A DNA stretch of 64,000 nt from an uncultured Methanosarcinales archaeon (GCA_964557345.1 CAZKZU010000001.1:555-64554), one strand, 5' to 3'; counted from the stretch's first letter, positions 8,773-61,371 are shown. Notes: a model not told the origin generated them from the letters alone. Numbers and translations are program-made.

Positions 8773-8812
8773 TTTCCCTCAATAAAAACATAACTTTCTA
8801 TAATTAATATAA

Positions 8813-11223: not shown

Positions 11224-11253
11224 ATAAATTAGAATTGTTAATATGATTTCTTG

Positions 11254-12391: not shown

Positions 12392-12640
12392 TTTTGATAT
12401 AATTATTTTATTATATATATATAATAATATTGTTATATTTATATGTTTTATGATTTAAATTCCGCATTTAGTTGTTAAAACTCTAGTATTTAATCAAGTC
12501 GTTTTACAAATGCGCCATTTTCAAATTCTAGAAAATTTTGAATTTTTGATGTATTGACTTGTGATTCTTTTGCCGTTTTTGACAGATAGTTTTATATATT
12601 ATTAGATAATACTTTTTTATATATTGATTGGACTTGTAGT

Positions 12641-41479: not shown

Positions 41480-43168
41480 TTGATGAAGAGTAAGTTAGCG
41501 CAGACAGCTAGTGCAGCAGGAGTAGTTGGTGTTATAGCGTTAGTTTTAATTATTTATATCGTATTAATTCCTGGTATTAAAGATTCTATTAATGGAGGAA
41601 GTTCTAGTGGCGGTAGTTCTGCTGGTGGGACAACAAGCGGTTCAACCCTTGTAAATGGATCTAGACCTTTAAATTATGTTGATCAGTTTTCTTTTCCAGG
41701 TCCTGGATTAGTTGATAGTTCAACAAATGGAAGGCAAATTATTTTACCTACTCTTAATCTTAAGACAACTACAAATTCTAAAATTTTAGCAAGTGATAAT
41801 AGTTTTTATGTGTATAAAACTTTTTTTGGAAATGATAAAAGAAAATCAATTATGTTTGATATTAAAGATTCAGAGCAAATTAGTAATGCACAGATTTCCT
41901 TTTTAGTTAAGAAATCATACGGTATGATTTATATTGATTTAAACGGCGTTAGAATTTATGAAGATGAACTTAGTTCTATGAATATAAATCCAATTAAAGT
42001 AAGTTCTGCTTTATTTCAAAAAAATAATTTATTAGAAATTTATACTGACTATCCAGGAATTGTATTCTGGAGACAACATCAATATATAATTGATGACTTT
42101 AAACTTTTTGCAGACGTTACTCAAACAAGTCAACAATCAAGTTTGGTTTCTTTTGATCTTAAACCATCAGAATTTAAATCATTAAGTAGATTGAAACTTA
42201 AATTTTATCCAACTTGCACTCAATCAACTGTCGATAAATTATATGTCTCATTAAATGGGCAAACAATTTCTGAACAAGTTCCTGATTGTAATGTATTAAA
42301 TATTTATGATCTTCCTCAAATACAAACAAAAGAAGGAATGAATACTATCGAGTTTAAAACTTTAAAAGATTCGTACTTGGTTGATCAACTTTCAGTGCAG
42401 ACTGAGCTTAAAGAAAATGATGATTTAATTTATACTTTTGATTTAGATAAAAAATTATTTAATTTTAAAGAAGAAGCTAAAAACGTGTGTGGTGAATTAG
42501 ATGGCGTATGTCCTGATTCATGTACTGCTGATCAAGATAAAGATTGCTGTTTCTTAGAATATAATAAAGGATTTTGGTGTACTGCTCCAACATTAAATGA
42601 AAATGATAAATGTGTTGGTAGAGTTGATAATTATAATATTGGTTTATGTCCTTCTGGATATGAAGATAAAAGTAAAAATCCTCCAACTGATTTTGAAAAT
42701 TTATGTGGTGATGATACTGATGGTACTTGTCCATTAGGTTGTTCTAAATTTATGGATAAGGATTGTTGTTTTGAGAATACTGGATATTGGTGTTCCGACG
42801 TTGCAACTAATGGAATGGCTGGCGTTTGTGTTGATGTTGTTACAAAAGATAGTTGTTCTTTTTGTCCTAGCGGATATAAAGGAGAGGATTCAACTCCAAC
42901 TTGTGATGGTTATGAAACTAGAAATCCAATGGAAGAAGTTTCTCAATTAAAATCTACATATCAAGCTGACGTTCAACTAAGATTTGTTGATGATGGTAAT
43001 AGAAAGAAAGGTAAAATTATTGTTGATGGTAGTACTATTTCATTTACTACACTAGAAGGAACTTATACTAAAGAAATTAGTACATTAGTTCAAGATGGAA
43101 ATAATTATGTGCAGATTGTTCCTGAAAGCGATTTCAATTTAGTTAATGTTAAGGTTACTGTTAAATAG
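41480..43168 (+). CDS. Surface protein with a pilin-like (class III-type) N-terminal signal and tandem Cys-rich modules
   Basis: N-terminus MMKSKLAQTASAAGVVGVIALVLIIYIV. Repeated C..DG.CP..C....DKDCCF...G(F/Y)WC modules at ~42480-42915. Confidence 0.4.
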   Translation: MMKSKLAQTASAAGVVGVIALVLIIYIVLIPGIKDSINGGSSSGGSSAGGTTSGSTLVNGSRPLNYVDQFSFPGPGLVDSSTNGRQIILPTLNLKTTTNSKILASDNSFYVYKTFFGNDKRKSIMFDIKDSEQISNAQISFLVKKSYGMIYIDLNGVRIYEDELSSMNINPIKVSSALFQKNNLLEIYTDYPGIVFWRQHQYIIDDFKLFADVTQTSQQSSLVSFDLKPSEFKSLSRLKLKFYPTCTQSTVDKLYVSLNGQTISEQVPDCNVLNIYDLPQIQTKEGMNTIEFKTLKDSYLVDQLSVQTELKENDDLIYTFDLDKKLFNFKEEAKNVCGELDGVCPDSCTADQDKDCCFLEYNKGFWCTAPTLNENDKCVGRVDNYNIGLCPSGYEDKSKNPPTDFENLCGDDTDGTCPLGCSKFMDKDCCFENTGYWCSDVATNGMAGVCVDVVTKDSCSFCPSGYKGEDSTPTCDGYETRNPMEEVSQLKSTYQADVQLRFVDDGNRKKGKIIVDGSTISFTTLEGTYTKEISTLVQDGNNYVQIVPESDFNLVNVKVTVK

Positions 43169-43300
43169 GCTTTAACCCTAGTTATGCTTATTTAGTTGTA
43201 TTTATTTGGTTGTATTTGTTTAGTTGATTTATTTAGAATTTGATACTTTATTATAATGATGATTAAAAATTTCTTAAAAAGAGGAGAAGTATAGATTAAT

Positions 43301-45598
43301 ATGGCTAATGTTCCTGGCGCTACTGGAGGTTCTTCTACTAGTAGTCCCGTTACTCCTTCAGCTCCCATCATTCCTAAGCCGGGATTTATGGAAAGGTTTG
43401 GAAAATATATTCCTTTTGTTGTAAATAAGTCAAGAGCAGCGGCAGTAGCTGGTGTGGGAATGGCGGGTGCAGCTTGGGGATTTGGATCTAAAGTAGCTAA
43501 AAGTGTTGCTGAAAAAGCGCCTTCTATTAAATATTCAATGATGTTTATTATTGCATGTATTTTGGCAGCAGTTAATTTTGTTTATTCTTCCAATAATACT
43601 TTAAAATTAAGTCTTCTTATTGTATATTTGGTTATTTTTTATTATTCATTTCAGAATAATATTGATAATATAAATAAAGAATACGGAAAGATCATCTTTT
43701 TTTCACTGATATATATTTTTGCTCCAACACTTGGTAATTTACTTGTATCATATGTGCCTGATATTGGTATTAGAAATTTATTAGTATATTTTTTGTTTAT
43801 ATTTGGATATTTGAGTCCATTGATAATGCTTTTATCAGTTCATCATGAAGAAAATTGGTTTAGCATTACTTTAGAATTACTTTTAGTCTTTTTCTTAATA
43901 GTTTTAGTTTTAAAATTTATGGCTACAGCAGGAATTCTTCCAGAAGGAGATCAAATTAGTTCTGATCAAAAGGAGGCATTTACTTCATTATTTGTTGGGA
44001 CTTGGGACACCATTAAATCCATTCCTACTTATGTTAAAACCTCAATCAATGGAACTGCGCACGATATAAATCAATCTTGGAATCAGATTCAAGGTAATAG
44101 TTATGAGGAAGAAATTGATCAAAGTGCCCTGGTAAGTACTCTTGGTTTAAAATTAAATGATATATCTTTTTCTAATACAGATGGCGCTTATTATCAAGGA
44201 GATCCTATTGATGCATGGACCTCTATTGAAGGAAAGAGTCTTGCTCGAGTTATTAAAGTAAAAACTTCGTGTGTTGTTGATAGGAAAAGAGGTTTAACTG
44301 AAAATATAACTTGGGTTCCTAAAAAACCTGAATTTTATATCAACGATATTGGATTTGAAGATATCTCGTGTAAGTTTCCAAAAAATAAATTTACTACTGT
44401 TAGAAGTTATGAATTAGAAATGTTTGCTGATTTTGATTTTACAACTAGTTCATATTTAAGACGATATTTTATTTCTGAAGCAGATAATAATAATATGAGG
44501 AAAAATAATATAGATCCAATTGTTTATTATAATATTCCACAGACTGATGAAGAAGGTAAATATACTAACGGACCAGTTGAACTTTCAGTTGTTAAAAACA
44601 ATTTATTACAACCTTTAGCTGATCAAGGAGATACTTTTTTATTAGGAATTAAAATCGCGACAAATAGAAAACAAGGTTTTGGCGATGGTAAATTAGTTAC
44701 AATGACCAATCTTCATCTTTCTTTGCCCCCCGGATTTGAGCTTGCTAGAGATGGTTCTAGATATGACTGCGGTAATTATGAGTTCGAAGTTTATCCTGGT
44801 GCTGATTGTATTGCGGATTGTACCCGGCTTATGAAAGGAGAAAGATGTATAGCTGATTGTAATAATTATAATAATTATAGGTTAAAAGCAGCTGATTCTA
44901 ATAATATAAGTGCTGGTGTTTTACCAAAAATAAAAGAAGAAGGAAAAGAATTCGTTAAATTACCTTTGCAAATTCCATGTTATGTGAAAACTAAATCTTC
45001 GCAATCTATACTTAAAACATCCAAGTTCGTTATGGAAAATTTCAGAGCAACAGCAGATTATGATTTCGAAATTTCAGTAGCAAAACCTTTTAAGATTCAA
45101 GAAAAGCAAGGTTATGTTAATGCAGAAAAATTAGCTGATTTTTGTGGCTTTAAAACAAGTTATATCAATTCAAGTTTAATTACAAAAGATAATGTTAATA
45201 GTTTAATTTCCAGGTCTGCTGAGCTTATTAATGATAGTAAAGTTTCTTTTTCAGGTTCAACAGTTTGTTCACAATTAATCAAAGCTATTGTCGTATATAA
45301 GAATAGAAATGGTGTTGAAAATAATATGGGTTATGGAATTACTGGTATAACTGAAGAACAGCTTGATTATTCTTATCAATGGCCAACTAATTTAGCTAAT
45401 GTTGAAACACAACATCAAGATATAACTTTAACTTCAAATTATTTGAAATATGCGCTTAGTCATGAGTGTACGATTGATGGACAACAAAATTTAGATTGTG
45501 CTCTTGGTTATTATTTCTGTAATTCTGGAACTGGTAGTTGCGTTGAAACTGTAGCTCCAATTGTAATACAGATCGCTAAAGCATTAAGTACTCCTTAA
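43301..45598 (+). CDS. Large polytopic membrane protein with a Gly/Ala-rich N-terminus and a large Cys-containing extracellular domain
   Basis: 765 aa; multiple TM helices at residues ~80-215, then ~550 aa soluble domain with many Cys. Confidence 0.4.
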   Translation: MANVPGATGGSSTSSPVTPSAPIIPKPGFMERFGKYIPFVVNKSRAAAVAGVGMAGAAWGFGSKVAKSVAEKAPSIKYSMMFIIACILAAVNFVYSSNNTLKLSLLIVYLVIFYYSFQNNIDNINKEYGKIIFFSLIYIFAPTLGNLLVSYVPDIGIRNLLVYFLFIFGYLSPLIMLLSVHHEENWFSITLELLLVFFLIVLVLKFMATAGILPEGDQISSDQKEAFTSLFVGTWDTIKSIPTYVKTSINGTAHDINQSWNQIQGNSYEEEIDQSALVSTLGLKLNDISFSNTDGAYYQGDPIDAWTSIEGKSLARVIKVKTSCVVDRKRGLTENITWVPKKPEFYINDIGFEDISCKFPKNKFTTVRSYELEMFADFDFTTSSYLRRYFISEADNNNMRKNNIDPIVYYNIPQTDEEGKYTNGPVELSVVKNNLLQPLADQGDTFLLGIKIATNRKQGFGDGKLVTMTNLHLSLPPGFELARDGSRYDCGNYEFEVYPGADCIADCTRLMKGERCIADCNNYNNYRLKAADSNNISAGVLPKIKEEGKEFVKLPLQIPCYVKTKSSQSILKTSKFVMENFRATADYDFEISVAKPFKIQEKQGYVNAEKLADFCGFKTSYINSSLITKDNVNSLISRSAELINDSKVSFSGSTVCSQLIKAIVVYKNRNGVENNMGYGITGITEEQLDYSYQWPTNLANVETQHQDITLTSNYLKYALSHECTIDGQQNLDCALGYYFCNSGTGSCVETVAPIVIQIAKALSTP

Positions 45599-45654
45599 TT
45601 GTAGATTGTTATATTTCTTATTTTATTTGATTTTACATATTATTCTTTGACTGA

Positions 45655-45790
45655 AAGTATACTGCCTGACTATGAGCCAATAAAACGTACTAAATTGGTG
45701 GAGCAACGACGAACGCATAGTGAGGAGTGTTCGCGACAATAGACAGGCGAATGCCGATAAAAAAAAGAACGGCGAATTGGCAGTATACTT
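45655..45790 (-). repeat. MITE-like repeat copy B (inverted relative to copy A)
   Basis: Its reverse complement aligns with 41254..41387 over ~135 bp with few mismatches. Perfect 12 bp terminal inverted repeat aagtatactgcc/ggcagtatactt. Confidence 0.7.
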
Positions 45791-45857
45791 GATAAAATCA
45801 TAAGACTTAAGCAATTTTACCATAAATATTAAAAATAGCAGAGAATATAGCTATGTT

Positions 45858-46820
45858 ATGAGAAGAAGTATTTTAAGATTGATTTTGATTGTTGTGGTAG
45901 TATTTTCTTTATTGTTCATGTCTGGATGCGGATCTAGCGGTAATACAATTAATTACATTTCTGATAATCAATTTAGAACTGGTACTAATGGAGTTACTAT
46001 GGAATTTGTGCAAAATTCTCCTCCTGAATCGATGATTGAAGATGCTGAAGTTTCTGTTGGAGTTAAATTACATAATGATGGCGCTTATAATGTTCAAAAT
46101 GGGTATTTAGTTGTTAGTTATGATAAGGATTATTTGACTTTATTTAATACGGGACAAAAGTCCTTTAATTTAGAAGGGAAAAATAAATATAATAAAGCTG
46201 GTGAAGAAAAGAGTATTTTTTTTGATGGTAAAACTTCTGTGTTAGAAGTTGAAAGCCAAAGACATGATGTTCCAATTGTAGCATCTATATGTTATCAATA
46301 TAATGCAACTTTATTAGATTTACTTTGCTTTGATACTCCTGATTTGCCGAATAAAGAAAAGGGTAAAACTATTTGTTCCTATAAGTCCGATTATTCTTAT
46401 AGTGGCCAAGGGGCTCCAGTTTCGATTTCTAACGTTAAATTAACTTTATCCTATTCTGAGGTTACTCAAAAATTTAAACCCATTATTGACTTTGAAATAA
46501 GTCATACTGCAAGTGGTTTTAGTAGTGATAAAGGCTTGGTTGTTAATTATGATAATTATAGATCAGCATGTACTAGTTCTGGATCGTCATCTTTTGATAA
46601 TTTGAATTTAGTTAAATTTGAGGCATCAATATCTGATGAAATTTTATCTTGTAATAAAGAAGAAGGGACAGTTACTCTTAGAGATGGAAAAGCAAATGTT
46701 AGATGCACTGGAAATTATATTGAGGCAGGATATTTGCCTTATCAAGCTCCATTAAAGATAGATTTACTTTATGGTTATATGACTACTACATCTACGACAA
46801 TGCAAGTAATTCGAAGTTAA
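45858..46820 (+). CDS. Secreted lipoprotein
   Basis: Signal peptide plus lipobox MSGC|GSS; Cys-containing beta-rich protein, 320 aa. Confidence 0.45.
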   Translation: MRRSILRLILIVVVVFSLLFMSGCGSSGNTINYISDNQFRTGTNGVTMEFVQNSPPESMIEDAEVSVGVKLHNDGAYNVQNGYLVVSYDKDYLTLFNTGQKSFNLEGKNKYNKAGEEKSIFFDGKTSVLEVESQRHDVPIVASICYQYNATLLDLLCFDTPDLPNKEKGKTICSYKSDYSYSGQGAPVSISNVKLTLSYSEVTQKFKPIIDFEISHTASGFSSDKGLVVNYDNYRSACTSSGSSSFDNLNLVKFEASISDEILSCNKEEGTVTLRDGKANVRCTGNYIEAGYLPYQAPLKIDLLYGYMTTTSTTMQVIRS

Positions 46821-46895: not shown

Positions 46896-47687
46896 TTAGA
46901 TTAGTTCAAATACGTAGTTTTTAACATACAAACTATTAGTAGTTGTAGAATATGTCACTATTTGGTTTGTATCGATTTTATAGATTTCTTTATTTGTTAA
47001 TTTTACGCACGTATCTTCTGTTTTTGTTACTTTACATCTAACAAAGAAGTCTTTAGCTTGATAGATAGTTGATATGTCTGTAAAAAAATCCGATTTAGCT
47101 GTAAAGTGTGGCCAGTAATAATAGTAGCTATGATCATTATTGGTTGCCATTCTTTTTATTCTTTCGCTATGTTTTGCAATGCCGTATACATTTTCATCTT
47201 TTTCAATTAGTGTGTAATTATTAGGGGAAATAGCGTTTATTGTTTTGTCTTCTTCTTTGTTATCCATTATAATTGAGTTGTATAATTTTATTTTGTTAGG
47301 TAGTTCTAAGTTGGTTTGATTTTCCATCCACTCCAATGCATATTTAGATAAATCTAATTGATAAGTTGAATTTTGGAGAATAATTTTCCCGTCTTGTTTT
47401 GGTAGATTTTTAATGGCATAGTCTTCGAAGATTTTGCTTTTTTCATCAATTATCTTTTGTGACGCAGTTTCAATGAAGAACCTTTGTTTGTAGCTTTCTT
47501 GCTTCATTTCTGTAATTTTAGCTGCGTCTATACCAACATAAGTAGTTGAGGATATTTGTGTTGCAATTCCACTAATTGCTATGTATAAAACGAAAATAAC
47601 GAATACCATTAATAGACTTACAATTAGGACTGATGCTTTTTTTCCAGCTTTATGTATTGAACTTTTTGTATTGTTTTTTGTTGTCAT
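46896..47687 (-). CDS. Pilin-like protein (class III signal peptide)
   Basis: Signal HKAGKKA|SVLIVSLLMVFVIFVLYIAI; last gene of the minus-strand pilin-like cluster. Confidence 0.4.
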   Translation of the reverse strand: MTTKNNTKSSIHKAGKKASVLIVSLLMVFVIFVLYIAISGIATQISSTTYVGIDAAKITEMKQESYKQRFFIETASQKIIDEKSKIFEDYAIKNLPKQDGKIILQNSTYQLDLSKYALEWMENQTNLELPNKIKLYNSIIMDNKEEDKTINAISPNNYTLIEKDENVYGIAKHSERIKRMATNNDHSYYYYWPHFTAKSDFFTDISTIYQAKDFFVRCKVTKTEDTCVKLTNKEIYKIDTNQIVTYSTTTNSLYVKNYVFELI

Positions 47688-47691
47688 TTTT

Positions 47692-48189
47692 TTATTTATC
47701 GGTTTTATCTAAAAACATTAGGTATGCTCCTCTATTTTGATAGTTAACCATTAATTCAGCAGAGTATGGATTAACTATTACTATTGAAGGTATTTCTATA
47801 GCACTTTTTCTATATGGCAATATTAAATATGACTTTTTGAAAGGCATTTTATCATTAAAATTTTCATTGGTTACTATGTCCCCTTTAAACGTTACATATT
47901 CTTTTTCAGCAAAAATATTATTGCTATCATCATAATTTTTTAGTTCAATGGTGATTGGAGTATACTCATCGTAAAGAGATCTATTCATCTTTATTAGCAT
48001 TGGAATAAATGAATCTACAATGTCGTTATTGTGAGAATCTGTTATTTTTTTGTTTTTCATTTCTTCTAGTTTAGAACTTAAGAGCCAAAAACCTACTATT
48101 AGTGCTACAAGTATGATTACTCCGATTATTACATCAGTCGCAAGATCTGCTTGTGCTTTTTTTGTATTCCTTATGGTTATTGGTCTCAT
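47692..48189 (-). CDS. Pilin-like protein (class III signal peptide)
   Basis: Signal TKKA|QADLATDVIIGVIILVALIVGF. Confidence 0.4.
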   Translation of the reverse strand: MRPITIRNTKKAQADLATDVIIGVIILVALIVGFWLLSSKLEEMKNKKITDSHNNDIVDSFIPMLIKMNRSLYDEYTPITIELKNYDDSNNIFAEKEYVTFKGDIVTNENFNDKMPFKKSYLILPYRKSAIEIPSIVIVNPYSAELMVNYQNRGAYLMFLDKTDK

Positions 48190-48300
48190 GTTTTTTAGTT
48201 ATTATTTTTCTAGTTTTTTCTTTTATGTTTTTAGTTATTTTATTGTTTGTTCTAGTATTTTTTAGTGTTATTTATTGCACTCTTATTATTATTCTTATCA

Positions 48301-48792
48301 TCATATTTTCCAAAATGATATATTTATCTTTCCGGCTTTGTATCCGTTAGTATCTTTGATTAAAATAGGATAAACTTTACTAAAATCAGGCCTGTCGATA
48401 TAATTTATTGTTTTTAATGATCCATTTACCTCGTTGTTTTTATCGTAAACAGTCAGTTTTACTCCTTTATTTTCTTCCTCAGAATAAAGTCCCATGCAAT
48501 TACTAAAAGTTACGTTATTAGTTAGTTTTGATTCGTCTATTACTTTACTATATTTTATTCCTGTGAATGGATCAATGTAATTGATACAATTGAAAGCTCT
48601 TTCTTCAAAGTTAAGAACGTTTGTTCCGTATGTGTTTTTGTAATATTTGTCGTTAATGCCTGTTGCAAGGATCATTAAGAATATGAATAGAACTATAATT
48701 ATAATTATTGCAATTATATAATAACCCATTTTATTTCCTAAATCAAATGATTCAGATTGGGCCTTCTTATTTAATTTCTTGAATGGTTTCAT
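48301..48792 (-). CDS. Pilin-like protein (class III signal peptide)
   Basis: Signal NKKA|QSESFDLGNKMGYYIIAIIIIIVLFIF. Confidence 0.35.
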   Translation of the reverse strand: MKPFKKLNKKAQSESFDLGNKMGYYIIAIIIIIVLFIFLMILATGINDKYYKNTYGTNVLNFEERAFNCINYIDPFTGIKYSKVIDESKLTNNVTFSNCMGLYSEEENKGVKLTVYDKNNEVNGSLKTINYIDRPDFSKVYPILIKDTNGYKAGKINISFWKI

Positions 48793-48805
48793 TTTTTAGT
48801 TTAAT

Positions 48806-49840
48806 TTAAGGTTTATTTACGCTTGCAATTTCAGTTCCTGCGCCATTTTCTAGTATAGGGACTATTTTGATGCTATTAATAACTATATTATTGTCAGTGT
48901 ATTTTGTTTCATCTTTTACATACGGAGAATAGTATCTAACTTCGTACCATTGCTCAGGATAAAGTTCTTTTAATTGAGGCCCACTACTTGGAATCATCCT
49001 ATCGTAAAAAGAATTAATTGCATCATATCCCGCTCCTGCAACCATTATGGCTATCGCAGCCCAGCCAAATGGAGTTGATCCTAAAAAAAAGGCCACAGGT
49101 AGCATTATTAGAGGCATGTTTTTCATTGCATTTCCGATATTAGATGATTGTTCATTCCATGCAATTGTCTCATCAACTTTTTCAATAAATTCAATGTAGC
49201 CATTTCCTTCGTAGAATACATATCCTGCATATGAGAGATAGTTTTTATCTCCAGCTCCATATTTTTTAATTGATTCTTCAAAAGTTGTATCTATTTTTTT
49301 TCCTTTAGTATTATAGTTCCAAAGAGAATATTTGTTATTGACGTCTAATAATTCTGATGTTGATATTTTTGCATTTTTATCATCTAAATGTAGTTTGAAT
49401 TTATAGCACGAAAAATAGTAATTTCCGTCTTCTCTCCACCCAATCCAATTAGTAGTGCCTTGCCCGAAAGTGTTAAGTATTTTTCCTTCTCCAAATGTGC
49501 TCCAGCAACTATCGATCATATTTCCCATTTCAATTGTAACTTTTTCTTTTAATTTATCCCCGCTGTATTTTGTTAAGTTTATTTCTTTTGTTTGCGTTAT
49601 GCACATAGGGTGTTTCATAGCTCCTTTCGCTACGGCATCTAGTCCCCATATATCTTTTTGAAGTATCGATCTAGAGACTTGTAATTCTTCTTTACAGATC
49701 ATATTTTGCGTTTTTGGTTCAAGACTTAAATAGAATTTGCTGACTATTGCAATTGCAAGTATTGCGAATATGATAACTAAGAGGATTTGCATTATTGCAG
49801 TCATTTCTCCTTTTTTGTTTTTTTGGATTATTTTGGCCAT
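48806..49840 (-). CDS. Pilin-like protein with a large C-terminal domain; paralog of 52853..53803
   Basis: Signal NKKG|EMTAIMQILLVIIFAIL. The C-terminal YEVRYYSPYVKDETKY..N.IK.VP..E.GAG is shared with 52853..53803. Confidence 0.45.
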   Translation of the reverse strand: MAKIIQKNKKGEMTAIMQILLVIIFAILAIAIVSKFYLSLEPKTQNMICKEELQVSRSILQKDIWGLDAVAKGAMKHPMCITQTKEINLTKYSGDKLKEKVTIEMGNMIDSCWSTFGEGKILNTFGQGTTNWIGWREDGNYYFSCYKFKLHLDDKNAKISTSELLDVNNKYSLWNYNTKGKKIDTTFEESIKKYGAGDKNYLSYAGYVFYEGNGYIEFIEKVDETIAWNEQSSNIGNAMKNMPLIMLPVAFFLGSTPFGWAAIAIMVAGAGYDAINSFYDRMIPSSGPQLKELYPEQWYEVRYYSPYVKDETKYTDNNIVINSIKIVPILENGAGTEIASVNKP

Positions 49841-49915
49841 TTGATTTTATTATTTTGTTTTATTATTATTTTTTCTTTATAGTTTAGTTCTTAGTATTTT
49901 CATATTTTTCGTCCT

Positions 49916-50809
49916 TTAATTTAATCCTTGAACGTATTCTCCGAATTTGTTAGTTTTAGTAATAATGATTGGATTTTTCTCAAGTTGCTCTTTTGTTACT
50001 ATAATTTGAACTGATTGAAGTGCAGAGATTATTTCATCATAATTAGTGATCGGAATGCTGTTTACTTCGCCTAGTTTATTTTTTGTTGAAGTTGCCTTGA
50101 TTTGGTTGTAATAGATGTCGCCATAAGTTTTTGCTTTATCATTGTATTCTATTTCGAAAGAGTTTTCTTTTGAGTCAATTTGTATCCAAATCAGAGAACT
50201 CATATTTTCTAATGCTTTAGTGATTTGACTTTCTGTATTTATGTTTTTATTTTTTAGAAGGAAATTCATAGCACTTTTGTATTGGAGATTATTTGTGCTG
50301 TTGGTGTAGAAAAATATCTTTGTTTGTTTGAAATTATCTGTATTAGTATTAACGGCATTTCCATCATTATTTGTTATTTCTTTATCTGTTAACCTACTTT
50401 CTAAATCTTCTTTTGGTTTGTCGCTTGCATATAATTGAGTTCCTATTTTATAGAAATAAAGTTTTGAAACGTTTTGGAATTTTGCTTCTATTTGAAAGTT
50501 TTTGGGATTAGCGTATCTTGCCGCATATTTTTTATCAGTAAGTGATGGAGATTTGTCTAATTGTATAGTGTCTTTTTGAAAGTCAATATCTACACTTTTA
50601 TTGAACTGAAAAACATATTTAAAATTTCCTTCTATCGAAGGTGTTCTTTCCATAAATAAAGCTAAATTGTAGGTGTCAAAACCAATCATTTTAGCATCGC
50701 TAACTGTTACTTTGTATGCATATCCTGTGAATGTAATTATGATTAAAGCTAGAAGTACAAGTTCCATTAGGAAGAATATTTCTGCTTTTTTACTTTTGTG
50801 TTTTATCAT
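49916..50809 (-). CDS. Pilin-like protein (class III signal peptide)
   Basis: Signal SKKA|EIFFLMELVLLALIIITF (type IV pilin-like, Glu in the hydrophobic N-terminus). Confidence 0.4.
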   Translation of the reverse strand: MIKHKSKKAEIFFLMELVLLALIIITFTGYAYKVTVSDAKMIGFDTYNLALFMERTPSIEGNFKYVFQFNKSVDIDFQKDTIQLDKSPSLTDKKYAARYANPKNFQIEAKFQNVSKLYFYKIGTQLYASDKPKEDLESRLTDKEITNNDGNAVNTNTDNFKQTKIFFYTNSTNNLQYKSAMNFLLKNKNINTESQITKALENMSSLIWIQIDSKENSFEIEYNDKAKTYGDIYYNQIKATSTKNKLGEVNSIPITNYDEIISALQSVQIIVTKEQLEKNPIIITKTNKFGEYVQGLN

Positions 50810-50812
50810 TTT

Positions 50813-51409
50813 TTATGTGCACGTTTGTTGAGTTGCATTAAGGCAGAATTGGATTTTATTGTCTTCTCGTATGATGTAAACATTATCTGAGTAGATAATA
50901 CTCCTTTGACCAGGTTTTGCATTTATTTGGGTGTGTTTGTTTCCAAATACATAAAAGTCTTCTGAGTTGTAAGGAGTTTTAAATAATGAAATGGCAGATA
51001 CTCCTAATGTTTTGCAGTAAGTGAATTTATTTGATTTTGTATAAAATGCACAAATACAGGATATTTCATTGCATTTTGTGGGTTTGTATAAATTTTGCTT
51101 TGTAATGTCTGAATAGCCTAGTGTCTTATTTGATCCAATTTGAAAGATGAAGATTAAATAATTTCCATCCAAATCTTCATTAATAGGAAGAAGTTGAGTT
51201 AGATATTTTTCAGGTCTTTGATTTAGTTCTTTAATTTCATTTGCCCATTGGTCAATTACATCTTCTTCATAGTGTTTATCCATGAAGCCTGTGAATTTCA
51301 AAACGATTCCTATAAAAAATAGTATTAAGAATACAGAGCCTAAAAGTCCCATTAAAAATTTTAAAGAGATGCTTGTGCCGGCTTTTTTTGAGTGGTTGAA
51401 TTTTTGCAT
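50813..51409 (-). CDS. Pilin-like protein (class III signal peptide); start trimmed to MQKF...
   Basis: Signal SKKAG|TSISLKFLMGLLGSVFLILFFIGIVL. The ORF-track N-terminal extension to 51511 is unlikely to be real. Confidence 0.35.
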   Translation of the reverse strand: MQKFNHSKKAGTSISLKFLMGLLGSVFLILFFIGIVLKFTGFMDKHYEEDVIDQWANEIKELNQRPEKYLTQLLPINEDLDGNYLIFIFQIGSNKTLGYSDITKQNLYKPTKCNEISCICAFYTKSNKFTYCKTLGVSAISLFKTPYNSEDFYVFGNKHTQINAKPGQRSIIYSDNVYIIREDNKIQFCLNATQQTCT

Positions 51410-51702
51410 ATTTTCCTCTTTCTTTTTAGTGTGAATGGAAGTCCTAGTAAAAACATAGGTTTGAAATCTTTTGTAAGTGTGCAAGTTGCAGTTTCTTGTC
51501 CAGGGATACATTGTCCAACCCCGCCGATAGTTTGGTTTACTACATCGTTTTCTCTTCCAATGTTTTTAACGAATATGAATATTACAACGACTAATACAAG
51601 GATAAGGATAGTTGCAATTATAACAGTTGAAAGTGTTAATTCATTGGATTTTTTATTATTAATATTTACTTTTGATTTTTGGTTGTTAGTTGTTTTTGTC
51701 AT
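51361..51702 (-). CDS. Small Cys-containing pilin-like protein; paralog of 53947..54207
   Basis: Signal NKKS|NELTLSTVIIATILILVLVVVIF; short C-terminal Cys-containing domain. Confidence 0.35.
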   Translation of the reverse strand: MTKTTNNQKSKVNINNKKSNELTLSTVIIATILILVLVVVIFIFVKNIGRENDVVNQTIGGVGQCIPGQETATCTLTKDFKPMFLLGLPFTLKRKRKICKNSTTQKKPAQASL

Positions 51703-51787
51703 GGGTTATCTCCTTTTTAGCTTTGTTATTTTTACTATAGTTTTTAATTATTCTTAATTCTTATTATATTTTTAATTTTGCTTAGTA

Positions 51788-52573
51788 TTAAGGACAAATA
51801 GGTAATTTTTCAATTTCGGCAGTTTTATCTGTTTCTAAGTTTCCACCAAACCAATTATGTTCGGTGTCTATTAATATTATATTTTTGCCTGACTTAATAG
51901 TTGTTTTCCAAATGTATTTTGAACTTAACGATTTACTATCGGCGTCATAGTAATAACTTGGGTTTAATACCTGATCTGTATAAAGCGATAATGTGCTATT
52001 TGTTCCTTTTATTTCTTCAGCTACATAATTGCTTTCCATGAATTTTTTTCTGATTGTTATTATGGATAATTTACTTGGTGATTTTTGTTGCTCTGCTAGG
52101 GATAATAACTCTTGTATTGAATGTGTGTCTAGGTATCCATCTAAATCTTGGATGATGTAAACGTCGTTTATACTTACCAATTCTTTTTCAAATGAAAGAC
52201 CTTGAACTGGATCTTGATATTGGAACGATAATTTTTGATTTTCAGTTTTATTTATTTTGAAATTGTATCCTTTTTCTCCATTTCCAACTGATGGTTTTAA
52301 AGTTTGATTTATTCTGCATAAATTTGTTCCAGACGATGCAGCTCTTTCCCAAGATGCTGTCAGATTTGTAAAATATTCTTTAGATTTTAGAATAATTCCT
52401 TTTTCATCTACTTTAGTATTATTTTGATTAGTTAAATTTCCTACAGTTGAATTTACAATTGAATCAGTTAGTTTATGTGCGCCAAAAATTTGGTTTGGGC
52501 CTATCCATAGTAAAATAAATCCCACTGCAATTACTATAGTGTATCCTATTATTTTATTTAGTTCTAGTGCCAT
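51788..52573 (-). CDS. N-terminally anchored secreted protein in the pilin-like cluster
   Basis: N-terminal hydrophobic segment IIGYTIVIAVGFILLWIG, without the usual KK motif. Confidence 0.3.
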   Translation of the reverse strand: MALELNKIIGYTIVIAVGFILLWIGPNQIFGAHKLTDSIVNSTVGNLTNQNNTKVDEKGIILKSKEYFTNLTASWERAASSGTNLCRINQTLKPSVGNGEKGYNFKINKTENQKLSFQYQDPVQGLSFEKELVSINDVYIIQDLDGYLDTHSIQELLSLAEQQKSPSKLSIITIRKKFMESNYVAEEIKGTNSTLSLYTDQVLNPSYYYDADSKSLSSKYIWKTTIKSGKNIILIDTEHNWFGGNLETDKTAEIEKLPICP

Positions 52574-52586
52574 TTTTTATTGGTAT

Positions 52587-52784
52587 TTAATCGAATAATC
52601 CTGAAATTGAATCTACAATTGAATTTTCGCTTGTAAACATTGTTTTTATAAAAAATAATAGTACAATTGCTATAATAATTATTACTAGCCACATAACAAT
52701 AATTTTCATTTCCATGCCTTTTTTGCTGGTATTGAATCTAGTTAATGCGTGTTTGGATGTTGTTTGTTGTGTTTTTGTTTTCAT
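52587..52784 (-). CDS. Very small pilin-like protein (65 aa)
   Basis: Signal SKKG|MEMKIIVMWLVIIIIAIVLLFFI, with almost no mature domain. Confidence 0.3.
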   Translation of the reverse strand: MKTKTQQTTSKHALTRFNTSKKGMEMKIIVMWLVIIIIAIVLLFFIKTMFTSENSIVDSISGLFD

Positions 52785-52852
52785 TGTGTACTTCTTTTTA
52801 TTTCTCTTATATATATTGATTTTGATATGTTTATATAATAAACTTACAATGA

Positions 52853-53803
52853 TTAAACTGTGCCTGCTCCTGTAATTACATTTCCAGCGCCATCTTCTCC
52901 AACTGGAACTACTTTTATGTTGTTTAGAACATATGTGTCTTTGTATTTGTCTATATCTTTAATATAAGGGGAGTAATATCTTACTTCGTAGTATCGTTCT
53001 GCATTGATTTCAATTAGCGGAGTTCCCATGTTAGGAGTTGCTTTTTTGATAAAGTCAATTCCCCCATCTAAATGTAACCATTGGGTAAGTTTAAATGAAT
53101 CTCTTGTATCTCCCGTTCCAAATGTTAGTTTTTCTTTAGTAGTATTCATGAATTCTAAGTACCCATAACCATTATAGAATATGTAACCTGCATAGGAAAT
53201 GTAGTTTTTATCTCCTGCAATTGCCTTATTGTAGCTTTCTTCAAAACTTATTTCGATTGGTTTTTTATTTATGTTGTATTTCCAAAGTAATCCGTCATTT
53301 GGATTTGAACTATATTCTAATAGTTTAGCTGTAGTAATTTTGTAGTTTGGATCTTTAGTATGAATTTTGAATTTGTAACATGTGAAGTAATAATTATTGA
53401 AATCAGTAAATCCCCAGTTTGAGGAATCTTGAATAAAAGTATTTGGATATTTTCCTTCTCCAAATGTTTTCCAACAATTTTCTGTCATTTCTCCTATTTC
53501 AATTGCGACTTGTTTATCTAGTTCAATTCCTTCATATTTAGTTAGATCAATTCGATTAATTTTTGTTGTGCATAAAGGATCTTTTACAGAAGTTTTAGCA
53601 AATTCATCTAATGACCAGGCAATTTCTTTATTTACTGCTTTATTTGCAAGGATGATATTAGCTGAACATATTTCTTGTTGAGTTGTTGTGTCTAGTGTTT
53701 TCATTAGTTTTCCAGATACCGTCCAGACTAAAATAGCAGCAATTAAGATAAGTATGATAGACATAATTACGCTCATACTTTTTTTATTTAGTTTTTTAAC
53801 CAA
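52853..53803 (-). CDS. Pilin-like protein; paralog of 48806..49840
   Basis: Signal NKKS|MSVIMSIILILIAAILVW; shared C-terminal domain with 48806..49840. Confidence 0.45.
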   Translation of the reverse strand: MVKKLNKKSMSVIMSIILILIAAILVWTVSGKLMKTLDTTTQQEICSANIILANKAVNKEIAWSLDEFAKTSVKDPLCTTKINRIDLTKYEGIELDKQVAIEIGEMTENCWKTFGEGKYPNTFIQDSSNWGFTDFNNYYFTCYKFKIHTKDPNYKITTAKLLEYSSNPNDGLLWKYNINKKPIEISFEESYNKAIAGDKNYISYAGYIFYNGYGYLEFMNTTKEKLTFGTGDTRDSFKLTQWLHLDGGIDFIKKATPNMGTPLIEINAERYYEVRYYSPYIKDIDKYKDTYVLNNIKVVPVGEDGAGNVITGAGTV

Positions 53804-53946
53804 GAATCATCGCCGCTTTTTTTCTAATTATAAAGAAAATAATAATAAATAGAACAATAACGACTGCGATAATAATGGCAATTCCTAAAAATCCTGAATT
53901 GTCTTCTTCGCTATCGGTATCATCCATGAGTTAGTTAAGCAGCCAA

Positions 53947-54207
53947 TTAAGGAGCTAGTTTTCCGCAACAATATAGATTATTACTGCATTTCAAGTCAAG
54001 TCTATATACAGGGTATTGTTCGTTTCCAATATCTCCGCAATCTAATTTACTTGCAACACATTTTCCTTGTTGAGCTTCACAACTAGCGATATTTTTGTCT
54101 CCTGCTCCCATGTATCTTATAAAAATAAATGATAGCACTATTAATACTAAGATTACTAAAGCTGCTATTATTACTGTGTTTAATGTCATACTTTGAGATT
54201 TTTTCAT
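53947..54207 (-). CDS. Small Cys-rich pilin-like protein (first gene of cluster)
   Basis: Signal MKKS|QSMTLNTVIIAALVILVLIVL followed by a 6-Cys ~45 aa domain. Confidence 0.4.
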   Translation of the reverse strand: MKKSQSMTLNTVIIAALVILVLIVLSFIFIRYMGAGDKNIASCEAQQGKCVASKLDCGDIGNEQYPVYRLDLKCSNNLYCCGKLAP

Positions 54208-55186: not shown

Positions 55187-55768
55187 ATGTTAACTCCCAA
55201 CGAAAAAAAGGTGTTGAAATTGATTATATTTTCTTTTGATACTGATTATTCTATTAATCAAATAGCAAAAGAGTGTAAGTTATCTGCTAATGGGGCATAT
55301 AAAATTCTTTTAAAATATGAAAAAGAAGGTATTTTACAACATAAAAATATTGCTAATTTGAAATCCTATAAGATTGATTTTAAAAGCGATAAGACCGCCA
55401 GTATTCTCGAATTAGTTTTGATTCCAGAATTGGATAAAAAAATTAAATTGAGATTAGATGATTTGAAAGAAGTAAGAGAGGTTTCTTCTGCTTGTATTTT
55501 CTTCGGTTCTTATATTAATAAAAAGGATCCGAATGATTTGGATGTAATTTTTGTTATTGATAAAAATAAATATAAGAATTATTCCGAAAAAATTGCTGTT
55601 GCAAAAGAAATAATTCCGATTAAAGTACATGATGTTGTTCAAACCTTCGAAGATTTAAAGCAAAATATTTTAAGTAAAGACAAAATTGTTCTTAGTGCAC
55701 TAAAAGAAGGAGTTATACTTTGGGGCTATAATGTTGTAATTCAGGTGATTAAAGATGTCTATAACTGA
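55187..55768 (+). CDS. wHTH-fused minimal nucleotidyltransferase (paralog of 11798..12391)
   Basis: ACIFFGSYINKKDPNDLDVIFVID NTase motif; N-terminal wHTH-like segment. Confidence 0.6.
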   Translation: MLTPNEKKVLKLIIFSFDTDYSINQIAKECKLSANGAYKILLKYEKEGILQHKNIANLKSYKIDFKSDKTASILELVLIPELDKKIKLRLDDLKEVREVSSACIFFGSYINKKDPNDLDVIFVIDKNKYKNYSEKIAVAKEIIPIKVHDVVQTFEDLKQNILSKDKIVLSALKEGVILWGYNVVIQVIKDVYN

Positions 55769-56249
55769 CAAATTAAAAAAATGTTTTAAGGAAGGGGAAA
55801 CTGGGGCTCGTCATAAAGGAGTACGTAAGATTGCAAAATCTCCTGAACTTGCAAATCAACATTTACAAAAAGCGATACATAATTTTAAGGCAATGTCTGA
55901 GTTTCAAAAAATAGGTTATTCGGATTGGTCTGCGTCTGCTTCTTTTTACAGCCTTTATCATTGTCTTTTGGCAATACTTGCTAAAGAAGGATATGAATCT
56001 AGAAATCAAAGTTGTACATTTGCGTTAATTGAAAGTATGATTGATAAGTTATCTATTACAAAAGAAGAATTAAAAGAAATATTTGACAGAGATGTTACTG
56101 AAGATCTAGAGCATAGTAACAAAATTCTTGATATAAGAGAAACAATGCAATATTCAATCAAAACTTCTTTAAAGCAGGAAGAATTTTTAATGTTAAAAGA
56201 AAAAACAAAAATACTTTTTGACAAATTAAGAAGAGATATTGAGAAGTGA
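55755..56249 (+). CDS. HEPN-like alpha-helical partner protein (paralog of 11254..11808)
   Basis: Overlaps the upstream NTase gene by 14 nt; all-helical; no canonical Rx4-6H motif. Confidence 0.35.
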   Translation: MSITDKLKKCFKEGETGARHKGVRKIAKSPELANQHLQKAIHNFKAMSEFQKIGYSDWSASASFYSLYHCLLAILAKEGYESRNQSCTFALIESMIDKLSITKEELKEIFDRDVTEDLEHSNKILDIRETMQYSIKTSLKQEEFLMLKEKTKILFDKLRRDIEK

Positions 56250-58536: not shown

Positions 58537-61371
58537 ATGGAAACAAAACGATCTCAGACCGCAACAGAGTATTTAATAATTCTCGCAGTAGTTATTATTA
58601 TAGCATTAGTTGTAGTTAATACTCTTGGTGGATTTCCTGGGATTGGTGCGAATAATAATAAGAAGGTTTCGGATTATAAACTTCAATCTGATACTGTTGG
58701 GGTTGAAAGTTATTCTATTGGTGCTAATAGTTCTTTGTTTAAATTAAAGAATAATTATTTTGATACAATTACAGTAACTGAATTTAGAGTTAATCAACAA
58801 AGTAATTTAACTTGTAATTCTTCTAATACAAATCCTTCTTTGCCGATTGTTTTGAATGTTGGGCAGAGTATGATTGTTAATTGTAGTGTTGTAAATAGTT
58901 CATCTTATACAATTACTAATAGGCAAGTTCCTGTTGTTGGGATATTATTTACTGATTCAGTTACAAGTAATAGATTTGCTGGGAATGCGCAAAGTTACGG
59001 TGCTGTTTCTTTAAGTGGAACATCTGGACAAAGTGGTTGTGTTGTAACAGGTGGAAATATAACTATTGTAAACGGTTATAAGATTCATACTTTTTTAAGT
59101 AATGGTACATTAAATATAACTTCAGGTAGTTGTGTCGCCGAGGTTTTAGTTGTTGCTGGCGGTGGTGCTGGTGGTGGAAATGGTGCTCCAGGAGGAGGTG
59201 GAGGTGCTGGTGGTTTAATTTACAATAGTTCTTATAATCTTAATTTAAGTAATTATAGCATTGTAGTAGGAAATGGTGGTTTAGCAGGTTACAATGGAGG
59301 AAATTCTAGTTTTGGTAGTTTAGTTGCAATTGGTGGCGGACATGGTGCTATGTATTCTGGTTCAAGAACTACTGGAGGATCTGGTGCTGGAGGAGGTTAT
59401 TCTACTTCAGCAGGAGCTGCAGGAACTGCAGGACAAGGTAATAATGGAGGTAATGGTTTAGGAACTTCAGTATTACCTTTAGGAGCTGGTGGTGGAGGAG
59501 GAGCTGGGACTGTAGGACAAGCTGCAACTGCAAATCCTTCTGGAAAATCAGGAGATGGTGGAATTGGACTTAATTATTCTATATCCGGCGTTAATACTTA
59601 TTATGCTGGTGGTGGTGGTGCTGGAGTAACTGCACAAGGAAGTACTCAAGGATTTGGAGGACTTGGTGGTGGAGGAAATGGTACTAGCGTACAAAACGCA
59701 GTTGGAGGAAGCGCAATTGCAAATACTGGTGGCGGTGGAGGAGGATCTCATAACGCAGCAGGAGGATCAGGTGGTTCAGGAATTGTAATTGTAAGATATG
59801 CTTTGACTGGAGGTAGTATTCCTAATTGTGCAGATGGGCAAATTTTGTGTAATGGTACTATTTATTCAAATTGCTCGAATGGAAATTGGGTAAATAATGG
59901 AAATGTTGATGGACTATGCGGATATTCTGCTCCTGGAAATATTACTTCACTTAGAACTGGATTAGTAGGATATTGGCCATTGGATGGAAATGTATCTGAT
60001 TCAAGTGGAAGTAATAAGGGTGGCGCAAATAATGGTGCAACTTATACTATTTCAGGAAAAGTTGGTGGCGCATATAGTTTTGATGGAAGTACTACTTTAA
60101 TTAACACAAATTTAACAATGCCAACTACTAATTTTTCTATTTCTATTTGGTATAATACTTCAGATAACGGTGGATCTTATACTCATAGGCCATTTGGTTC
60201 AGGCGATAGTTGTTGTGGCTCACATGGATTAGATTATACTGTTAATAATGGTGGTGGACGAGCTACTGTAATATTTAGAAACAATGGTGCAAGTTATGAT
60301 TTTGATTGTGGTTCATCTCCTTCTATTAATATTTGGGAAAATTTAATACTTGCAGTTTCTTCTACGACAGGAACTACTTGTTATAGAAACTCCGTTTCTT
60401 CTGGAAGTAATTCTAATGCTAAATCTATATCTACTGGTGGATTGACTTTTAAAATGGGTTCTGCAGGAGATACAGGTGGTGTTTTTAGTGGAAAAATGGA
60501 TGAAGTTTCTGTTTGGAATCGGTCTTTGAATTCAACTGAAGTATTACAATTATATAATAATGGAACTGGTTTAAGTTTATCTTTATCTGGAGCTCAAACT
60601 CCTGTGTGTGCTGCTGGACAAACTAGTTGCAATGTTACTAATTATTTAACTTGCTCGAATGGAAGTTGGTTTAATAATGGAAATATTACTGGTTATTGTG
60701 GATATGCTCCTCCTGGAAATGTAACTCAACTTAGACAAAATTTAATTGAATATTATCATTTCGATGGAAATGTTACTGATTATAGTGGTTATGGCAGAAA
60801 TGCAAGTTGGTCAGGTGCTAGTTCTTATGTATCAGGAAAGATTGGACAATCTGCAAATTTAAACGGTTGGGATAGTTTTATTTGGTTACCCTCTAATTAT
60901 ATTCCGAATTCAAATGTTACTTTAAGTATGTGGATTAAACCTTACATTCTTCGAGATGCACTTATTGTTGAAAGAGGTCCTACTGCAGGGTGTGATGGAT
61001 TATTATTTATGTTAGGTGAAGGAGGAGATACTTCAAGTAGATTAAGATTTGATTATGGATGTTCAGATTATAGTTTGCATTCTAATAATTCTTTGACAAT
61101 AAATTCTTGGAATCATGTAGCAATAACTCAGGATGCTGCAGGATATTCTAAAATATATATCAATGGTCAATTTGAGGCAGGAGAATCTCAAGGAATTCAT
61201 ACTAATACGAACATTCAATCTTTAGGTGGAGGATATGGTGGCGGGACTTACGTTGGTACTTGGAACTTAAATGGTACTGTAGATGAATTCGCAGCATGGA
61301 ATAGAGTTTTGAATGATACAGAAATAGCGCAGATGTATAATGGCGGAAATGGATTAAGTTTAGTTCCATAA
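58537..61371 (+). CDS. Large pilin-signal surface protein with a Gly-rich repeat region and two concanavalin A-like (LamG) lectin domains
   Basis: N-terminus METKRS|QTATEYLIILAVVIIIALVVV (archaeal type IV pilin-like QTA.EYL). ~270 aa of GGGAGGG/NGG repeats. Two LamG-like ends: MDEVSVWNRSLNSTEVLQLYNNGTGLS and VDEFAAWNRVLNDTEIAQMYNGGNGLS. Confidence 0.55.
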   Translation: METKRSQTATEYLIILAVVIIIALVVVNTLGGFPGIGANNNKKVSDYKLQSDTVGVESYSIGANSSLFKLKNNYFDTITVTEFRVNQQSNLTCNSSNTNPSLPIVLNVGQSMIVNCSVVNSSSYTITNRQVPVVGILFTDSVTSNRFAGNAQSYGAVSLSGTSGQSGCVVTGGNITIVNGYKIHTFLSNGTLNITSGSCVAEVLVVAGGGAGGGNGAPGGGGGAGGLIYNSSYNLNLSNYSIVVGNGGLAGYNGGNSSFGSLVAIGGGHGAMYSGSRTTGGSGAGGGYSTSAGAAGTAGQGNNGGNGLGTSVLPLGAGGGGGAGTVGQAATANPSGKSGDGGIGLNYSISGVNTYYAGGGGAGVTAQGSTQGFGGLGGGGNGTSVQNAVGGSAIANTGGGGGGSHNAAGGSGGSGIVIVRYALTGGSIPNCADGQILCNGTIYSNCSNGNWVNNGNVDGLCGYSAPGNITSLRTGLVGYWPLDGNVSDSSGSNKGGANNGATYTISGKVGGAYSFDGSTTLINTNLTMPTTNFSISIWYNTSDNGGSYTHRPFGSGDSCCGSHGLDYTVNNGGGRATVIFRNNGASYDFDCGSSPSINIWENLILAVSSTTGTTCYRNSVSSGSNSNAKSISTGGLTFKMGSAGDTGGVFSGKMDEVSVWNRSLNSTEVLQLYNNGTGLSLSLSGAQTPVCAAGQTSCNVTNYLTCSNGSWFNNGNITGYCGYAPPGNVTQLRQNLIEYYHFDGNVTDYSGYGRNASWSGASSYVSGKIGQSANLNGWDSFIWLPSNYIPNSNVTLSMWIKPYILRDALIVERGPTAGCDGLLFMLGEGGDTSSRLRFDYGCSDYSLHSNNSLTINSWNHVAITQDAAGYSKIYINGQFEAGESQGIHTNTNIQSLGGGYGGGTYVGTWNLNGTVDEFAAWNRVLNDTEIAQMYNGGNGLSLVP

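Follow-up and report, generated by a model that had tools for sequence, protein, structure and literature searches.

In bacteria, the operons fimU-pilVWXY1E, gspG-K of the type II secretion system (T2SS) and comGC-GG each encode several distinct prepilin-like proteins, which prime a filament or form its tip, and these operons often lie apart from pilB, pilC and pilD. The signals of such minor pilins and pseudopilins have the form G|F/M with a Glu at +5, and go with a peptidase lineage different from the one considered below. Among the archaea, the Epd locus of Methanococcus maripaludis (type IV filament, TFF, 'system 1') is an operon of ~11 genes that encodes several pilins with class III signals together with an ATPase, two platform proteins and the peptidase EppA, whereas further pilin genes are found at separate loci; its major pilin, EpdE, is short and headless (PMC4371748; bioRxiv 10.64898/2026.04.22.720090). 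Type IV prepilins need Gly, Ala or Ser at position -1, the charged residue at -2 is critical in archaea, and the substrates of EppA carry K-G-Q with the Gln at +1 (PMC4371748). It is normal for archaeal pilin genes to be located away from the assembly operon, typically as singletons or tandem pairs (PMC4858521). For example, the PilA1-6 pilins of Haloferax volcanii are encoded apart from PilB3/PilC3 and are not co-regulated with them, yet they are assembled by these proteins and are adhesive (PMC4371748; PMC4858521). In DPANN archaea, orphan signal-peptide proteins encoded in 'dark matter' islands beside FlaI/TadC were read as highly diverged type IV pilins, according to the part of the work of Makarova, Wolf and Koonin (2019, PMC6393860) that deals with these islands. 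Here we describe a block of minus-strand genes at positions 46896-54207 of a 64,000-nucleotide stretch (GCA_964557345.1 CAZKZU010000001.1:555-64554; hereafter the window) assigned to an uncultured Methanosarcinales archaeon. The block is most likely a chromosomal operon, formerly unannotated, that encodes pilin-like surface proteins.

The block consists of 12 tightly packed genes (Table 1), namely the 11 open reading frames (ORFs) listed in the initial annotation, all of which were recovered at the same coordinates, and an additional ORF of 43 amino acids (aa). From the last to the first in the order of transcription, the 11 ORFs encode 263, 165, 163, 344, 297, 232, 113, 261, 65, 316 and 86 aa, and the 232-aa ORF is probably translated as a 198-aa protein from the Met at 51409, a start that was picked by ortholog alignment. 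The intergenic gaps range from -49 to +143 nt. Ten of the genes begin with a lysine-rich leader of 1-23 residues, which ends in K-K-[A/G/S] and is followed by a hydrophobic helix of ~20-25 residues. More precisely, a hydrophobic 19-mer with a mean Kyte-Doolittle value of 2.5-3.7 starts 0-14 residues after K-K-[A/G/S] in 10 of the 11 ORFs; the initial annotation had ascribed this start to all of them, which is correct except for the 261-aa gene (g261), which starts at the hydrophobic segment itself. The motif was present in 10 of the 12 block genes, compared with 2 of the 56 other genes in the window (Fisher one-sided p=1.4e-8), indicating that it is not a by-product of lysine-rich composition. 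The two matches outside the block were a lipoprotein, matched by chance, and a LamG protein of 944 aa that itself bears a class-III-like signal. N-terminal to the hydrophobic domain (H-domain), 10 of the 12 genes accordingly encode a charged residue at -2 and Gly, Ala or Ser at -1, and the H-domain of ~20 residues is not followed by a signal peptidase I or lipobox site. No lipobox was observed in the block genes, although 6-7 other exported proteins of the window carry one and Lgt is also encoded there, which indicates that the ordinary exported proteins use a signal different from that of the block proteins. The two paralog pairs proposed earlier were both confirmed by blastp: 48806/52853 (g344 and g316; 41% identity over 340 aa, E=4e-78) and 51361/53947 (g113 and g86; 40% identity over 53 aa, E=4e-10).

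The block resembles the Epd operon in its number of genes and in the series of class III signals, but holds no gene for an ATPase, platform or peptidase, and no sequence or profile similarity of the block to the Epd pilins or to DUF361/PF04021 was detected. The KKA|Q and KKS|Q sites of g163, g165 and g86 can be compared with the K-G-Q sites of the Epd pilins. The Epd-type signature as a whole (invariant Gln at +1, Glu at +5, DUF361/QxSxExxxL) was absent: Gln occupies +1 in only these three of the ten leadered genes, and none of the block genes matched PF04021. The PilA genes of H. volcanii are dispersed singletons or pairs that form a single family whose H-domains (Pilin_N/DUF1628) are nearly identical, whereas the block comprises 12 mostly unrelated families in one operon. 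It has no detectable homology to the bacterial minor-pilin and pseudopilin operons and, with 10-12 genes, is larger. A pilin-only operon of 12-15 genes that is conserved across genomes is also larger than the arrangements described in PMC4858521. No family of the block belongs to a described pilin family, and the module is detached, expanded and lineage-specific.

The processing signal was surveyed in 105 sequences, which comprised ten small families, the g316 family and the distant relatives of the latter. In ~84 of the 105 sequences, [KR][KRQ][GAS] was located immediately before the H-domain. The pattern matched 87 times in total, and three of these matches, at C-termini in the g43 and g65 groups, are spurious; among the 87, position -1 was Gly in 41, Ala in 35 and Ser in 11, position -2 was Lys in 79 and Arg in 7, and position +1 was Gln in 18. 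Most of the sequences without the motif were truncated gene calls or belonged to the g261 family, which naturally lacks a leader. That two lysines are followed by an invariant small residue in otherwise unrelated families points to a processing site, because the positive-inside rule alone is insufficient to account for it. In addition, the head domains contain invariant Cys residues and the window encodes a membrane-anchored DsbA-like thioredoxin, which together favour an extracellular location of the heads.

Homologs were collected by a word-indexed search of 5.8e9 proteins and by comparing a profile exhaustively with 1.84e9 cluster representatives. The former yielded only 4 relatives of the 344-aa protein and 7 homologs of g163, and the latter 18 close (E<1e-30) and ~90 distant relatives of the g316/g344 family; a scan of the GTDB species representatives added nothing, its only related genome being already among those collected. 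Searches of Pfam (E<=1), NCBIfam (E<=1) and PHROG returned noise only for all 12 genes, and no family could be assigned. The same operon, with its genes in the same order, is present in at least six other contigs of Nanobdellota/Woesearchaeota type, namely L004 (a Nanobdellota metagenome-assembled genome, MAG), L014, L015 (a Ca. Woesearchaeota MAG), L017, L019 and L022/L023, and L006, L020 and L021 are fragments of it. The shared order is g86 (1-3 copies), the 43-aa ORF, a g316-like gene, g65, a g261-like gene, g113, g198, g297, a g344 copy, g163, g165 and g263, the second g344 copy being confined to the window and L014. Pairwise E-values between the operon loci go down to 1e-42. Conservation extends in part to the flanks: the upstream neighbour in the window and L014 is a divergent PF01877 RNA-binding gene, DUF212 follows the operon in L004, L014 and L022, and eIF-1A occurs close to it in L014, L019 and L022. 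Such flanks speak for a chromosomal operon rather than a mobile element. The window is a segment of an archaeal chromosome with 29% GC that encodes pelota, ArgRS, anaerobic NrdD, aIF-2B and Trm5. Homologous loci with a taxon label belong to 'Nanobdellota archaeon' and 'Candidatus Woesearchaeota archaeon', both of them DPANN, and the source archaeon is tiny and probably host-dependent.

A link to type IV filament machinery was obtained from distant relatives. A tblastn scan of metagenomes detected relatives of the N-terminal domain of g316/g344 on L007, L008, L011 and L013 (22-29% identity; profile E 1e-9 to 1e-3), and on these four contigs the gene lies inside a complete locus with an ATPase, a platform-position protein, pilin-like genes and a peptidase. 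The ATPase (767-769 aa; present in L011 and L013) matches Pfam T2SSE (7e-14), and its best matches in the PDB are afGspE (2e-28), CpaF (4e-24) and FlaI (2e-13). The platform-position protein (724 aa) had no Pfam or PDB match; its position and ~10 transmembrane (TM) segments suggest that it is a putative platform. The complete loci contain ~nine small genes that start with [KR][KR]G and a hydrophobic helix, and Peptidase_A24 (PF01478, 1.4e-10) ends the pilin block in L008 and L011. Three or four families of the block are homologous to genes of these complete TFF loci. In profile and hidden Markov model (HMM) searches, relatives were found for the 316/344-aa, the 86/113-aa and the 65-aa families; in L008 and L011, the g65 family HMM matched the first of the small genes that follow the platform (E=1.8e-4, 6e-4), and the g113 family HMM matched L008 4634 (6e-6). 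The complete loci look like the island type described in the relevant part of PMC6393860, where the argument is based on the adjoining ATPase/TadC genes. These do not adjoin the operon in the window or in the six related loci, and neither the families of the block nor its 12-15-gene order are named in that paper's description of the islands. The match to CpaF and the mature g65, a headless helix of the size of Flp, recall the Tad/Flp pilus, but no RcpA secretin, TadZ or TadE/F profiles were found, and the peptidase of the complete loci is of the archaeal A24 type. An LPG_synthase_TM protein (5e-48) is encoded between the ATPase and the putative platform in L013 (5176-6195) and L007 (2392-3411).

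The initial annotation had stated that no assembly machinery lies within the 64 kb, and this was borne out by Pfam, tblastn and motif scans. None of the ORFs of >=100 aa in the window matched T2SSE, T2SSF or Peptidase_A24, and tblastn queries with an ATPase, a platform and a peptidase of the DPANN type gave no match at E<0.1 in the window and none in L004, L014, L015, L017 or L019. The Walker A matches in the window were accounted for by an ABC transporter and by a second motif match in a NUDIX ORF, and no membrane protein of the window has a GxGD motif in a membrane segment. Consequently, three of the four components that define a complete TFF locus, the ATPase, the platform and the A24 peptidase, are missing from the window. 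Since no machinery was found here or around the relatives, its presence in this genome is assumed. An asparagine-synthase-like ORF runs off the 3' end of the window and was all that extension of the sequence on that side yielded; the 5' side held nothing of relevance. Three Pfam-negative multi-TM proteins (765 aa at 43301, 218 aa at 39366 and 205 aa at 23931) were considered as a divergent platform or peptidase and ruled out, because they have no GxGD in the membrane, no similarity to the L011/L013 platform and peptidase, and the wrong topology. The plus-strand genes upstream (~561-562, 765 and 320 aa) were likewise dropped as parts of the system, as they have no homologs in the related loci.

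AlphaFold models were built on family alignments of g316 (19 sequences) and g163 (7 sequences). The g163 model (pLDDT 80.1) shows a helix of 58 residues (13-70) followed by six beta strands, and in the g316 model (pLDDT 79.9, pTM 0.80) a 50-residue N-terminal helix (7-57, kinked at 37-38) precedes a globular alpha/beta domain. Modelling, which had been proposed as a check, thus gave a mixed result: the predicted architecture of g163, a long helix plus a beta-sheet, is pilin-like, but no significant match to a solved pilin was obtained.

The motif rule, the relatives in machinery loci, the g163 model and the distinct signal support the original reading of the block as a pilin-like operon with class III signals and without assembly genes nearby. 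In our view, the block is likely to be the subunit (pilin) module of a Nanobdellota/Woesearchaeota-type DPANN TFF system that is detached from its assembly genes. The products would be inserted in the membrane via Sec with the short basic leader in the cytoplasm, and an A24-type class III signal peptidase (PibD/FlaK-like) would cut after K-K-[G/A/S]. An afGspE/CpaF-like ATPase and a polytopic platform, both presumably encoded, like the peptidase, outside the 64 kb, would then pull the N-terminal helices out of the membrane and build a surface filament or short pseudopilus from them. What the sequences show is the genes, the motif, the conserved operon and the homology of three or four families to genes of complete TFF loci; cleavage, assembly into a filament and a role at the surface or in host attachment are inferred from them. 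The bulk subunit could be g65 and/or g86, with the larger proteins serving as minor, tip or adhesin subunits. Both are candidates for the major subunit: g65 resembles the short pilins of the Flp/EpdE type, its mature part of ~42 aa consisting of a helix and a short tail without a globular domain, and g86 has a small disulfide-rich head and 1-3 tandem copies in the relatives. The larger proteins, encoded by single-copy genes (g316/g344, g297, g263, g261, g198, g163 and g165), are likely to be minor, priming or tip subunits and adhesins.

Several observations weigh against a detached pilin module. No curated pilin, archaellin or class III signal profile in Pfam or NCBIfam matched any block gene at E<=1; no pilin was among the PDB sequences retrieved with the family profiles of g86/g113 and g163; and neither model had a significant match to solved pilin structures. 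Only g344 passes the pattern at +1 to +4 that we take to be the strict FlaFind rule. Of the 11 families, only three or four showed homology to genes of the complete loci, and part of this signal is contributed by the TM helix. No ATPase, platform or peptidase gene was found around the six related loci (<=10 kb per side, some of the contigs being shorter). Finally, the g316/g344 family has a hydrophobic hairpin, an unusual feature in a subunit that has to leave the membrane. In g344 it is located at residues ~240-268 (...FFLGSTPFGWAAIAIMVAG...), and it is Gly/Ala-rich in the relatives; most close and distant members of the family have such a hairpin of 30-70 residues near the C-terminus, usually Gly/Ala-rich (~35-55%) and often with a central (N)PxGW turn, whereas g316 and a few others are without it. 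Alternatively, the N-terminal segments could be uncleaved signal anchors and the products bitopic proteins forming an envelope or host-contact complex independent of any TFF. This would explain why the assembly genes never adjoin the operon, being absent beside it in seven loci, and would fit the failure to match a curated pilin profile or a solved pilin fold, the leaderless g261 family and the stable membrane location that the hairpin of g344 implies. We nevertheless consider it improbable, since the invariant Gly, Ala or Ser after two lysines in unrelated families is not due to the positive-inside rule alone, in other archaea three or four of the families have homologs situated between the TFF ATPase/platform and the A24 peptidase, and archaea commonly keep pilin genes apart from the assembly operon (PMC4858521).

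It is also conceivable, though on balance unlikely, that the proteins undergo pilin-like processing but form, instead of an external adhesive filament, a short pseudopilus or the piston in a machine for secretion or uptake, like T2SS GspG-K and ComG; such a machine might transfer DNA, protein or lipid between the DPANN cell and its host. The 10-12 different subunits, none of them clearly dominant, are reminiscent of pseudopilin sets, afGspE and CpaF are the nearest matches to the ATPase of the distant complete loci, the very small membrane proteins g43 and g65 look like machine parts, and the extra membrane hairpin of the g344 family points in the same direction. However, none of the loci yielded a secretin-like, channel or DNA-binding component, and the tandem copies of g86 are more typical of an abundant filament subunit. 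A more speculative proposal, which we judge very unlikely to be correct, takes the oddity of the hairpin in a subunit that leaves the membrane as its starting point: the operon would encode a DPANN-specific host-contact apparatus in which the signature subunit, g316/g344, sits at the tip of the filament, inserts in the host membrane and helps to open cytoplasmic bridges. Bridges of this kind have been observed joining DPANN cells to their hosts. The N-termini of the family are of the pilin type, and the domain that we read as disulfide-bonded has no match among solved structures; the steady separation from the ATPase, platform and peptidase genes could mean that assembly is carried out by a different or a shared machine. 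An integrated virus or other mobile element encoding membrane or virion proteins would account for the fact that all of the genes are orphans without a family and for two weak PHROG matches (E=2e-4 and 1e-3, both to families of unknown function), and small TM proteins are common in archaeal viruses. This origin is nonetheless extremely improbable, because the GC content of the block equals that of its flanks (0.29), Pfam scans found no integrase, capsid, packaging or replication gene, the neighbours (PF01877, DUF212 and eIF-1A) are conserved, and the divergence between the loci is ortholog-like.

Pilin-like genes in DPANN archaea are expected by specialists, and the value of the detached pilin module lies in concrete, searchable families. 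DPANN archaea are thought to live attached to their hosts, and the contact molecules are largely unknown. A groundwater study reported type IV pili components to be 'missing in DPANN genomes' (bioRxiv 10.1101/2020.05.14.094862). Our data suggest that annotation-based surveys can report 'no pili genes' in DPANN when such genes exist but lack an annotation: a set of 12-15 pilin-like genes is conserved in a Woesearchaeota-type lineage, is missed by all curated profile libraries tried and is tied to bona fide type IV machinery via distant relatives only. The roughly one dozen families, the KK[G/A/S] motif and the signature protein can be used for metagenome searches, and they provide candidates for proteomics, cryo-electron tomography labelling and work on host attachment.

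Table 1. Genes of the block, in the order of transcription, and other features of the window. A vertical bar marks the putative processing site.
Feature	Coordinates	Strand	Description
g86	53947..54207	-	86 aa, first in the operon; M-KKS|QSMTLNTVIIAALV; small head with six Cys
g43	53796..53927	-	43 aa; acidic N-terminus, TM segment, RKK C-terminus
g316	52853..53803	-	316 aa; signature family copy 1; TTG start at 53803; KKS|MSVIM...
g65	52587..52784	-	65 aa; 23-residue leader ending KKG|MEMKIIVMW...
g261	51788..52573	-	261 aa; leaderless pilin-like; starts at hydrophobic segment MALELNKIIGYTIVIAVGF
g113	51361..51702	-	113 aa; g86 paralog with different C-terminus; KKS|NELTLSTVIIATIL
g198	50813..51409	-	198 aa from Met at 51409 (ORF reaches 51511); KKA|GTSISLKFLMGLLG
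g297	49916..50809	-	297 aa; KKA|EIFFLMELVLL...
g344	48806..49840	-	344 aa; signature family copy 2; KKG|EMTAIMQILLV...
g163	48301..48792	-	163 aa; KKA|QSESFDLGNKMGYYIIAIIIII; best-conserved small subunit
g165	47692..48189	-	165 aa; KKA|QADLATDVIIGVIILV
g263	46896..47687	-	Last gene of the operon, 263 aa; KKA|SVLIVSLLMVFV
944-aa adhesin-like protein	58537..61371	+	METKRS|QTATEYLIILAVVIIIALVV; Gly_rich_2 and two Laminin_G_3 (Pfam); 4.3 kb from operon
Lgt	37755-38507	+	Bacterial-type prolipoprotein diacylglyceryl transferase; Pfam 3.9e-40
Lipobox-signal proteins	22206, 22651, 24820, 30987, 31453, 33323, 45858		Six or seven proteins
Envelope proteins	41483-46820	+	Three orphans: (1) ~561-562 aa, MKSKLA|QTASAAG... 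and TM segment, repeated CPxxC...DKDCCF motifs; (2) 765 aa, 4-5 TM segments, large Cys-containing ectodomain; (3) 320-aa lipoprotein
Minimal nucleotidyltransferase + HEPN pair	11254-12391	-	
Minimal nucleotidyltransferase + HEPN pair	55187-56249	+	
YoeB-like toxin	13821-14165		
Restriction/defence-like module	5342-10870	-	971-aa ResIII helicase with TnsA-like endonuclease domain, AIG2-like gene, 685-aa N6/N4 DNA methylase; probable assignment

The individual genes of the operon can be followed across the related loci. Judging from its two termini, g43 has a topology opposite to that of the pilin-like genes. It overlaps the start of g316 by 8 nt, was matched by blastp to L006 146-280 (E=1.9e-5) and has positional orthologs in L004, L017 and L019. 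The g316 protein has four invariant Cys residues and the conserved motifs CWxTFGEGK, NYYFxCYKFK, YEVRYYSPY and NNIKIVP. Orthologs of g65 were found in L004, L006, L017 and L019. There is no space for a leader in g261, because the upstream gene is only 13 nt away. Its ortholog in L014 (2594-3346; E=2.5e-30) and the version in L019 are also leaderless, as are the 52/53-aa genes of L011/L008, whereas the orthologs in L004 and L017 do have KKG/KKA leaders. The overlap of g113 with the next gene is 49 nt, or 151 nt if the longer 232-aa ORF (50813-51511) is taken. Members of the g113 family end in a short hydrophobic patch and a basic tail (...PMFLLGLPFTLKRKRK; in L004 ...IIPLIPFIRKKYF), which might be a C-terminal anchor or a sorting signal. 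Orthologs with significant E-values were found in L014 and L004 for g198 (L014 3602, E=9e-39; L004 13311, E=5e-15), g297 (L014 4162, E=2e-41; L004 13915, E=3e-15) and g263 (L014 7001, E=1.6e-21; L004 15861, E=1.3e-12). The orthologs of g163 have E-values down to 7e-42, and g165 has an ortholog in L014 (6447; E=8e-9) and positional orthologs in L004, L015 and L017.

An extra trio of pilin-like genes with KKG|Q or KGKA|Q signals (~340, 85-160 and 165-190 aa) lies directly upstream of the operon in L019, L022 and L023. The trio regions are located at 10032-10886 (-) and 10883-12947 (-) in L014, 2530-4557 in L019 and 2196-4274 in L022. In L014, the trio is followed by an overlapping gene for a GxGD intramembrane protease similar to presenilin/signal peptide peptidase (PF06550 at 1.1e-5, above the cut-off), and this protease might process class III signals. 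The window has no homolog of the trio genes or of the L014 GxGD protease.

Among the other features of the window, the 944-aa protein has the signal (KRS|QTATEYLIIL...) that comes nearest to the QxSxExxxL signature, and its LamG domain gave a weak match to the TafC fimbrial protein. It may be a cargo or tip adhesin of the filament, an association suggested by proximity. Lgt is of bacterial type in an archaeal genome, and no Lsp was seen in the window. The three envelope proteins converge on the operon and have no Pfam match and no homolog in the related loci. The two pairs of minimal nucleotidyltransferase (MNT) and HEPN genes fit the MNT/HEPN families given as typical of DPANN in the section of PMC6393860 that covers them. 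The three genes at 5342-10870 probably form a type III-like restriction-modification or defence module.

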